Shown one piece after another: positions 37,600 through 38,528 of a stretch of DNA of 64,000 nucleotides. A program made the translations under genes and the position numbers. Origin of the DNA: a virus (taxonomy: Duplodnaviria; Heunggongvirae; Uroviricota; Caudoviricetes); the IMG/VR virus record IMGVR_UViG_2795385584_000001, positions 21,334 through 85,333 of that record; one strand, given 5' to 3'. The notes below the pieces were generated by a model. That model did not search any database, had not been told where the DNA came from, and saw only the letters and a program-made list of their open reading frames with translations. Position 1 is the stretch's first letter. Each line of letters starts with the position of its first letter.

Positions 37600-37735
37600 C
37601 GTGCATCTCCTTGTTAGAGGGTGCGGGCGGCGCGAACGTGTGAAGGGCTGCCGGGGTTCGTCATCCTTGCGAGGGGTGGGGTAACCGACTGCGATCCTGC
37701 TCGTGCCACCCGCGTGGGCTATTGGGCGGGTGATG

Positions 37736-37885
37736 TGAACGTGTGTGTGCTGACCGGGATTTCGCTTTTACACCCGCACTAGGTGCAGGCGACAGGGATT
37801 GAACCTGCATTAACCAATTGAGTGATAACTGACCGAGCGTCCTGTTCACATCGGGTTGTCTGTCGTGCGTGCGCGTAGGTGGCGT
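37736..37885 (-). ncRNA. Y-RNA-like (Yrl-type) tRNA-mimic module, unit 1
   Basis: T-arm-like GCAGG-TTCAATC-CCTGT; acceptor-like hairpin CCTGCAC/GTGCGGG; adjacent to rsr. Confidence 0.4.
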
Positions 37886-38052
37886 GGGCGTGTGGGGTGC
37901 TGACCGGCGTATGTGGACAATTGCCTCTACCAATTGGGCTACACCCCGCGAGCGAGGTGGTGGGGCTCGAACCCACACCTGACTGTTTTGGTAACCGACC
38001 TGCGTCCTGTCCACACCGCCTGCGCGCATGCGTCTGCTGGTGTTTGAGGTGG
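37886..38052 (-). ncRNA. Y-RNA-like tRNA-mimic module, unit 2
   Basis: T-arm GTGGG-TTCGAGC-CCCAC; acceptor hairpin CACCTCG-CTCG-CGGGGTG; D-arm TAGCCCAATTGGTAGAGG. Confidence 0.45.
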
Positions 38053-38218
38053 TGTGAGCGTGTGGGTTTCGTCCGGGTTTAGCGCTCTAGGCCGCTGAGC
38101 TACAACCACTTTCGTGGCTGGCGGGATTCGAACCCGCGTCTCTCTCAGGAAAGGAGATAACCGAACGAAGTCCTGTTCACACCGTGCTGTGCATGGAGTT
38201 GTGTTGGGTGATGGGGCG
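38053..38218 (-). ncRNA. Y-RNA-like tRNA-mimic module, unit 3
   Basis: T-arm GCGGG-TTCGAAT-CCCGC; acceptor hairpin CAGCCAC-GAAA-GTGGTTG (GNRA loop); D-arm TAGCTCAGCGGCCTAGAGC; long imperfect closing stem. Confidence 0.5.
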
Positions 38219-38381
38219 AACGTGTGTGTGCTGACCGGGGTTTAGCGCTCTGCCAACTGAGCTACAGCCGGGGGCTGGCTGGCGGGACTCGAACCCGCGA
38301 CCTCTCCATTACAAGTGGTAACCGACCTGCGTCCTGCTCGCACCATCTGGTGTCTATGTAGTTGTGGTCTGGGAGTGACGT
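38219..38381 (-). ncRNA. Y-RNA-like tRNA-mimic module, unit 4
   Basis: T-arm GCGGG-TTCGAGT-CCCGC; acceptor hairpin CAGCC-AGCCCCC-GGCTG; D-arm TAGCTCAGTTGGCAGAGC. Confidence 0.5.
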
Positions 38382-38528
38382 GAACGTGGTTGGCGCTGGG
38401 CGGGTTTGGCTCCATTTCCCCGCTTGGCTCGGGGCGTTCTAACTTGAACTACGGGGGCGTACCCCGAGATAACCGACCTGCATTCTGTTCACGTCGTCCG
38501 TTGTTTTGTTGTCTGAAAACGAAGCTAT
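38382..38528 (-). ncRNA. Y-RNA-like variant unit 5 (D-arm and hairpins, no T-arm)
   Basis: Hairpin CGGGG-TACGC-CCCCG; D-arm TAGTTCAAGTTAGAAC; hairpin CCCCG-AGCCAAG-CGGGG; shares the conserved flank. Confidence 0.3.

Follow-up and report, generated by a model that had tools for sequence, protein, structure and literature searches.

In a 64,000-nucleotide stretch of a tailed-phage genome (Caudoviricetes; IMG/VR record IMGVR_UViG_2795385584_000001, positions 21,334 to 85,333; hereafter the window), six tandem repeat units, U1 to U6, occupy positions 37628-38499 on the minus strand. They lie directly upstream of rsr, the gene of a Ro60/Rsr ortholog. The region most probably consists of six tandem Y RNA genes, of which U2-U5 are of the YrlA type and U1 and U6 scaffold-only, a reading to which we assign a probability of roughly 0.9. 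YrlA/YrlB-type Y RNAs, including mycobacteriophage examples, were described in 2014 (PMC4201824); the array adds an unannotated and unusually expanded case to this known class of YrlA-type Y RNAs with Rsr, and the system itself is not new. Neither the YrlA-type family nor the rsr gene had been named in the initial annotation of this DNA, which had reported a variable hairpin between conserved flanks. All positions are window coordinates, and the array is read on the minus strand, where the hairpins quoted in that annotation make sense. The putative units and the gene that follows them are listed here with their terminal (P1) and inner (P2) stems, their scores with R1, a covariance model built from U2-U4 only, and their scores with the Rfam YrlA model:

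38376..38499, minus strand: U1, scaffold-only unit; P1 GACGUGAAC/GUUCACGUC, P2 GCAGGUCGG/CCGCCCAGC; recognised by its R1 match (41.1 bits, E 1.9e-7), its fold and its P1/P2 pairing
38212..38348, minus strand: U2, YrlA-type unit with P1 and P2; R1 149 bits; Rfam YrlA 37.6 bits at 38244-38305
38050..38187, minus strand: U3, YrlA-type unit; R1 145 bits; Rfam YrlA 28.9 bits
37880..38021, minus strand: U4, YrlA-type unit; R1 131 bits; Rfam YrlA 28.5 bits in a full-length alignment
37731..37856, minus strand: U5, degenerate YrlA-type unit; R1 63.7 bits (E 1.6e-12), untrained
37628..37711, minus strand: U6, 84 nt, scaffold-only unit of YrlB type; P1 GGUGGCACGAGC/GUUCGCGCCGCC, P2 GCAGUCGG/CCGGCAGC, the latter one base pair shorter on both sides; recognised by its R1 match (33.5 bits, E 1e-5) and its fold
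35884..37599, minus strand: rsr, 571-amino-acid Ro60/Rsr ortholog; GTG start with AAGGAG 7 nt upstream

R1 comprises 138 positions and 30 pairs; the MAFFT alignment of U2-U4 misplaced the D arm, so that the D-stem pairs are not part of the model. Searched against the whole window at E<=1, R1 yields exactly six matches, U1-U6, which bears out the six copies counted initially. Since three of these six lie outside the training set (U1, U5 and U6), the repeat family is real and restricted to this one spot of the window. The copies have diverged too far for Tandem Repeats Finder, whose output for the array is empty, and a sequence-only nhmmer profile missed U6 and most of U1.

The four hairpins that had been quoted all exist, and their stems are kept through changes on both sides: CAGCCAC-GAAA-GTGGTTG at 38120-38103 in U3, CACCTCG-CTCG-CGGGGTG at 37959-37942 in U4, CCTGCAC-CTA-GTGCGGG at 37789-37773 in U5 and CAGCC-AGCCCCC-GGCTG at 38281-38265 in U2, all on the minus strand. 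The last can also be drawn in a 7-bp register, CAGCCAG-CCC-CCGGCTG, with one C.A mismatch. In three units this acceptor-like hairpin is flanked 5' by a T arm (GGTTCGAnnCC) and 3' by a D arm (TAGCTCA...AGAGC), so that the distal module of U2-U4 has a circularly permuted tRNA order in which the acceptor stem is closed by a loop. U2 combines a V hairpin (CCA-CUUGUAA-UGG), the T arm GCGGG-UUCGAGU-CCCGC, the acceptor-like hairpin with six of seven pairs and the D arm GCUC-AGUUGGCA-GAGC. The acceptor-like hairpins of U3 and U4 have the full 7 bp; the D arm of U3 is GCUC-AGCGGCCUA-GAGC and the T arm of U4 is GUGGG-UUCGAGC-CCCAC. The D loops contain GG, and the T loops UUCGA or UUCAA. The minimum-free-energy fold of U3 is the canonical structure (z = -3.3). 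U5 follows the order in part: it keeps a T arm, GCAGG-UUCAAUC-CCUGU, together with a hairpin of 9 bp, CGCCUGCAC-CUA-GUGCGGGUG, and has AAAGCGAAAU in place of the D arm. In U1 the inner module is divergent: its predicted fold shows one hairpin, GUUC-AAGUUA-GAAC as a D-like arm and another hairpin of 5 bp with a 7-nt loop, and no T arm. T arm and acceptor-like hairpin are thus carried by U2-U5 only; the initial annotation had placed the hairpin in the repeat units generally, which holds for these four, whereas U1 and U6 share the flanks alone.

The flanks, which had been described as nearly identical, are indeed conserved, but at about 75% identity: mean pairwise values are 77% for the 5' flank and 73% for the 3' flank, with a range of 62-89%. 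The two flanks are mutually complementary and form the terminal stem P1 and the inner stem P2, separated by an asymmetric internal loop, so that in all six units the 5' and 3' ends pair into the long stem expected of Y RNAs. Examples of P1 besides that of U1 are GAUGUGAAC/GUUCACAUC in U5 and GGCACGAGC/GUUCGCGCC in U6. P2 is GCAGGUCGG/CCGGUCAGC, usually with an A.A mismatch, and contains an invariant UCGGUUA/CCGG block; in U3 it is fully compensated (UUCGUUCGG/CCGGACGAA). Within the window, 50 of 54 alignment cells of P1 are paired, with at least two pair types at 5 of 9 positions, as are 47 of 53 cells of P2; in the acceptor-like stem, 27 of 28 cells are standard pairs, with at least two pair types at 6 of 7 positions. 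The earlier suggestion that the flanks may form a protein-binding stem gains support from the compensated P1 and P2, the Y RNA architecture and the position of rsr, which begins 29 nt after U6 on the strand of the array.

The product of rsr contains TROVE (Pfam, 6e-46) and vWA_Ro60 (2e-63) domains and matches the structures of Deinococcus radiodurans Rsr (PDB 2nvo, 5.5e-103) and Xenopus Ro60 (1yvp, 6e-100). With rsr less than 4 kb away and in the same orientation, the array has the placement expected of Y RNA genes. The region is ~96% identical to the Mycobacterium abscessus prophages prophiGD43A-5 and prophiT37-1, and the host element is a cluster MabK-like M. abscessus prophage. In both GenBank records, rsr is annotated as 'Ro-like RNA binding protein', and the array is blank save for one 'tRNA-Thr' in prophiGD43A-5; neither record has a coding sequence there.

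Among Rfam families, a permissive search ranks YrlA (RF02553) first for U2, U3 and U4. A close experimental counterpart is the YrlA/YrlB pair of M. smegmatis, which binds Rsr experimentally and is processed from one precursor upstream of rsr (PMC4201824). R1 detects both RNAs directly 5' of the M. smegmatis rsr gene, YrlA scoring 110.5 bits (E 6e-24) and its neighbour YrlB 39.8 bits. The pair resembles the array in several respects: the genes are in tandem upstream of rsr and on its strand, the short scaffold-type RNA is nearest to rsr (the place of U6 matches that of YrlB), and the scaffold has the same parts, with P1 and a UCGGUUA-bearing P2 on either side of an internal loop. M. smegmatis YrlA furthermore shares with the array a V hairpin (CCACUUNUAAUGG), a T arm, a 7-bp closed acceptor stem and a D arm; its V hairpin reads CCACUUCUAAUGG, compared with CCACUUGUAAUGG in U2. 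The differences are that the window holds six predicted units in a prophage, against two experimentally validated chromosomal ones in M. smegmatis, and that it includes intermediates, namely U5 without a D arm and U1 with another inner module.

For a broader test of the structure, rsr loci were collected from an Rsr alignment, 80 from reference genomes and 80 from viral contigs, and all were searched with R1 (individual loci are cited below by handles such as L093). At most of the 160 loci, R1 matches are concentrated directly 5' of rsr, in the orientation of the gene. The resulting alignment, the kind of multi-unit comparison including related prophages that had been proposed initially, comprises 50 units (49 distinct) from 18 sources. 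Standard pairs make up 94.0% of its cells at the modelled pairs, compared with 77.7% in shuffled alignments, none of 500 of which reaches the observed value, and with 33-43% when partners are slid. Double-sided changes occur at 24 of the 30 pairs and in 217 cells, against 68 expected. Each of the four helices finds support; by stem, over the 49 distinct units, the values are:

P1: double-sided changes at 8 of 9 pairs, 90.9% of cells paired
P2: double-sided changes at 6 of 9 pairs, 92.0% of cells paired
T stem: double-sided changes at 3 of 5 pairs, 99.5% of cells paired
Acceptor-like stem: double-sided changes at 7 of 7 pairs, 97.3% of cells paired

RNAalifold, applied to a plain MAFFT alignment of 20 diverse units and thus with no structure imposed, recovers the P1, P2, T, acceptor and D stems de novo, with 19 of 30 pairs compensated. 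The tRNA tertiary signature is kept too: U8 and A14 do not vary among the 38 units compared, and the Levitt pair, stressed by Chen et al. 2014 (PMC4201824) as a feature of YrlA, covaries, being G15:C48 30 times and A15:U48 seven times, U4 among the latter, with one exception. The blocks conserved to at least 90% across all 49 units (UCGGUUA, CCGG and CA..CACG) all lie in the scaffold, a pattern that fits a putative binding site of a common protein partner.

This pattern of variation also bears on the notion that the repeats are DNA-level elements (protein-binding iterons, sites of recombination or repeats of an origin) or that the region is protein-coding. Regular spacing, conserved blocks of ~28 nt, mechanically called open reading frames overlapping the array (e.g., 37661-38029 on the minus strand) and the adjoining palindrome described below could be taken in that sense. 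The variation, however, obeys RNA pairing, including G-U pairs, and is sensible on one strand only; the P2 base pair missing from U6 is gone from both strands; prophages differ by entire units (5, 6 or 7 copies) regardless of reading frame; and the GenBank records are free of coding sequences here. Strand-specific covariation thus contradicts both ideas, which we regard as very improbable.

Several observations weigh against the assignment as Y RNA genes. The tRNA-like domain is missing from U1 and U6, which have only the flanks and scaffold in common with the others. The YrlA scores of U2-U4 are all under the Rfam gathering threshold of 69 bits; since the validated M. smegmatis YrlA (L165, 2739-2803) also fails with 45.1 bits, sub-threshold scores are normal for actinobacterial members, and the threshold does not discriminate among them. 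The GNCGAAN0-1G motif of Chen et al. 2014 is not literally present in any unit; the equivalent position reads GCAGGUCGG, or UUCGUUCGG in U3, compared with GUCGAUCGG in the validated M. smegmatis YrlA. U4 has a 14-nt insertion 3' of the D arm that can pair with the 5' end of the unit instead: UGUCCACAUACGCC (37919-37906) and GGCGGUGUGGACA (38020-38008) form 13 bp with one bulge, a helix that is present in the minimum-free-energy fold, competes with P1/P2 and would disrupt P2. U4 orthologs are 98-100% identical, so that covariation cannot tell whether this helix is a switch or a relic. The principal pair counts come from an alignment fitted to the model itself, a limitation that the RNAalifold run offsets in part. 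Finally, a scan of 35700-39100 found no sigma-70-type promoter, and a terminator-like palindrome stands just upstream of U1:

38524..38541, minus strand: perfect palindrome of 18 bp, GCUAUACCGCGGUAUAGC (GCTATACCGCGGTATAGC), followed by T-rich UUCGUUUUC; ~25 nt upstream of U1; terminator-like match

In view of the empty promoter scan and this palindrome, a transcription unit of array and rsr is putative. The palindrome may serve to terminate transcription of the gene before it, or else as an operator or a hairpin in a leader; GGCTATACAGCC, a related sequence, lies ~30 nt further upstream.

Two tRNA calls in the array were rejected. ARAGORN reports a 'tRNA-Thr(tgt)' at 38272-38350 on the minus strand; it is part of U2, lacks a D arm and arises because the V hairpin with its 7-nt loop is taken for an anticodon arm (UGU). 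The same false call is gene 51 of MW584167.1 (L001, 8473-8551), the prophiGD43A-5 record, and probably the single tRNA given for this prophage in PMC8092301. An Rfam tRNA match of 34 bits at 38113-38271 is a chimera of the U2 D arm and the U3 T arm across a 100-nt insertion; at the gathering threshold with default filters, the Rfam tRNA model has no match in the array, and Rfam as a whole finds only two ordinary tRNAs in the window, at 62.6-62.8 kb. A canonical cloverleaf with an anticodon arm is not found.

These calls, together with the tRNA-type T and D arms and the frequency of tRNA arrays in mycobacteriophages, are what could recommend the view that the units are functionless, decaying pseudogenes of a duplicated phage tRNA array. 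The probability of this view is close to negligible: the order of the arms is permuted and an anticodon arm is lacking, both tRNA calls dissolve on inspection, compensatory changes keep the stems, and homologues of the units accompany chromosomal rsr genes across the Actinomycetota. The comparison with relatives also speaks against decay. In MabK-type prophages, the six units are found in the same order with 95-100% identity. A second prophage lineage, whose Rsr is ~75% identical (L092-L097), has five units, of which only U2 (88-91% identical), U5 (89-90%) and U6 (77-81%) have clear orthologs. In a direct alignment to L093, U5 is 88% identical, compared with 59% for rsr third codon positions and ~50% for the spacers between units; the global alignment to this locus misregistered U1-U4, as unit content differs, and figures were taken from U5, U6 and rsr only. 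The units being better conserved than rsr third codon positions and spacers, purifying selection acts on them and they are not decaying. The initial proposal of selection on RNA structure as opposed to decay of duplicated tRNAs is sustained by this result as well as by the acceptor-like stem, which is compensated throughout and emerges without imposed structure.

Copy numbers differ widely among rsr loci. They were counted by hand as R1 matches with E<0.01 that precede rsr and share its strand; since R1 was trained on this window, the counts at distant loci are lower bounds:

Reference-genome loci (80): 0-4 units, mode 2, maximum 4 (L019 and L071)
Cluster C phage LinStu: 1 unit
MabK-type prophages: 6 or 7 units, the extra unit lying between U2 and U3 in L084 (3241-3387), L085 and L091
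Prophage group with 75% identical Rsr: 5 units
Unrelated viral contigs L103, L118 and L142: 5, 5 and 6 units

Among the loci sampled, arrays of at least five units are found only in phage or prophage contigs. The copy-number differences between close relatives suggest that recombination inside the array adds and removes units. In the searchable literature, arrays of this kind were not found described; Chen et al. 2014, however, state that they reported every YrlA-like sequence where several lay <4 kb from rsr (355 RNAs from 254 bacteria and 22 phages; PMC4201824), and their supplementary tables would give the number of YrlAs for each phage. The tRNA-like modules also vary between arrays: D arms resembling class II (GGCAGAGCGGCCUAAUGC) and an extra hairpin 3' of the D arm were seen at L093:3240-3411, L021:3747-3888, L105:3757-3893 and L118:3474-3622, and therefore different units mimic different tRNA types. 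In L142, a genuine tRNA (Rfam 47 bits) sits inside the Y RNA array at 3436-3507. At six chromosomal loci of Promicromonospora (L023, L028, L030, L032, L060 and L064), an extra pair of R1 matches is located on the opposite, minus strand at ~1.0-2.6 kb in locus coordinates, i.e., ~1.4-3 kb upstream of rsr, sometimes instead of the same-strand pair.

High copy number in phages and the diversification of the tRNA-like modules within and between arrays could also mean that the units use a Y RNA scaffold for a main role independent of Rsr-mediated decay. They would then form a panel of tRNA mimics that, during infection, decoy or soak up those factors of the host that recognise tRNA, for example RNase P, enzymes that add CCA or modify tRNA, or defence nucleases directed against it. 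In their 7-bp acceptor stems the units agree with the RNase P substrate of M. smegmatis (PMC4201824), and the tRNA-like domain of YrlA is still without known function (10.1101/312249), both of which would be in keeping with such decoys. We nevertheless consider this improbable: the scaffold is the most conserved part of every unit, rsr is always adjacent, U1 and U6 carry no tRNA mimic, and anticodon nucleases would have no target as the anticodon arm is missing.

If the units are Y RNAs that work through Rsr, characterised Y RNAs suggest the following sequence of events. The array and rsr may be co-transcribed in early lytic growth and processed to single RNAs of 85-140 nt. The terminal stem of Y RNAs holds the Ro60 binding site (10.1101/312249), and P1/P2 would accordingly be the common Rsr-binding module in all units. 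The variable distal module would be the effector-binding end that tethers or gates Rsr: in D. radiodurans and phage phiLo, the effector end recruits PNPase to give a RYPER-type particle that degrades structured RNA (10.1101/312249; PMC12135203), and a Y RNA can also gate entry to the Rsr cavity (PMC4201824; 10.1101/312249; PMC12135203). Possible targets in the prophage host are PNPase, whose KH/S1 domains the effector module would bind in a RYPER-like complex, or tRNA-recognising enzymes. M. smegmatis YrlA is cut by RNase P and given CCA (PMC4201824); U3 and U4 with their 7-bp stems, and perhaps U2 (6/7) and U5 (9 bp), may be treated likewise. Members of the YrlA subfamily are also expected to serve TruB and DusA as substrates; the prerequisite visible in the array is the acceptor stem. 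A more far-reaching and, in our estimate, unlikely proposal is that in phages and prophages a YrlA/YrlB pair has grown into arrays of 5-7 tRNA mimics that have diverged from one another. Each would show its own tRNA-like face (acceptor stem, D-arm class, extra arms), and together they would steer phage Rsr to several host tRNA-binding or RNA-decay factors or titrate several tRNA-recognising defence or processing enzymes; the 7-bp units might perhaps be opened by RNase P and receive CCA, giving RNAs resembling tRNA halves.

Mechanistic precedent for a phage-encoded particle comes from the Thermus phage phiLo (NAR, i.e., Nucleic Acids Research, 2025), whose Ro60 is likewise encoded downstream of tandem Y RNA-like genes and forms, with Yrl1/Yrl2, a ternary RYPER-like complex with host PNPase (PMC12135203). 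phiLo differs in having two RNAs, which are recognised by a CGAA motif plus a stem-bulge-stem and are nowhere called 'tRNA-like' in that paper, and in a host that is only distantly related. Cluster C phages such as ET08 (Chen et al. 2014) also combine a phage Rsr (55% identical) with a YrlA-like RNA upstream; the single R1 match in LinStu of this cluster compares with the 6-7 units of MabK-type prophages. YrlA of Salmonella Typhimurium (RF02553; crystal structure 6cu1, Wang et al. 2018, 10.1101/312249) shares with the array the permuted tRNA-like effector domain, the tRNA tertiary contacts and an equivalent of the anticodon stem (P2 here) that leads to the Rsr-binding stem. The acceptor stem is shorter in Salmonella than the 7 bp found here, and neither an rtcBA operon nor an RtcR context is seen at this locus.

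The novelty is modest: a copy number of 6-7 compared with ~2 at chromosomal loci, in an array that is unannotated in GenBank and has one unit mis-called as tRNA-Thr. The assignment accounts for ~1.4 kb of unannotated sequence that separates rsr from the toxin gene in M. abscessus prophages of MabK type, and corrects gene 51 of MW584167. It also shows that the Rfam YrlA threshold misses Y RNAs of actinobacteria and of mycobacteriophages and other phages, the validated M. smegmatis RNA included. The six paralogs form a graded series, from the full tRNA mimic through a form without D arm to the bare scaffold, which could be used to probe the role of the tRNA-like domain of Y RNAs.

As to the genomic surroundings, prophiGD43A-5 belongs to cluster MabK, and its toxin-antitoxin pair, which has been placed among early lytic genes (PMC8092301), lies just past the array on the opposite strand. 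Pfam scans of the neighbouring genes gave no RtcB, RtcA or other RNA-repair genes, nor anything else informative. Just upstream of the array, a 112-amino-acid open reading frame (38596-38934, minus strand) looks, by eye, as if it began with a signal peptide and ended in a tail rich in Gly, Ser and Pro; Pfam gives no match to it, and prophiGD43A-5 carries no annotation at the corresponding place. Near the end of the window, the two ordinary tRNA genes, Arg(ACG) at 62608-62683 and Ser(GCT) at 62731-62820, both on the minus strand, may belong to the host and mark where the prophage ends, as MabK prophages use a tRNA attB site for integration (PMC8092301).

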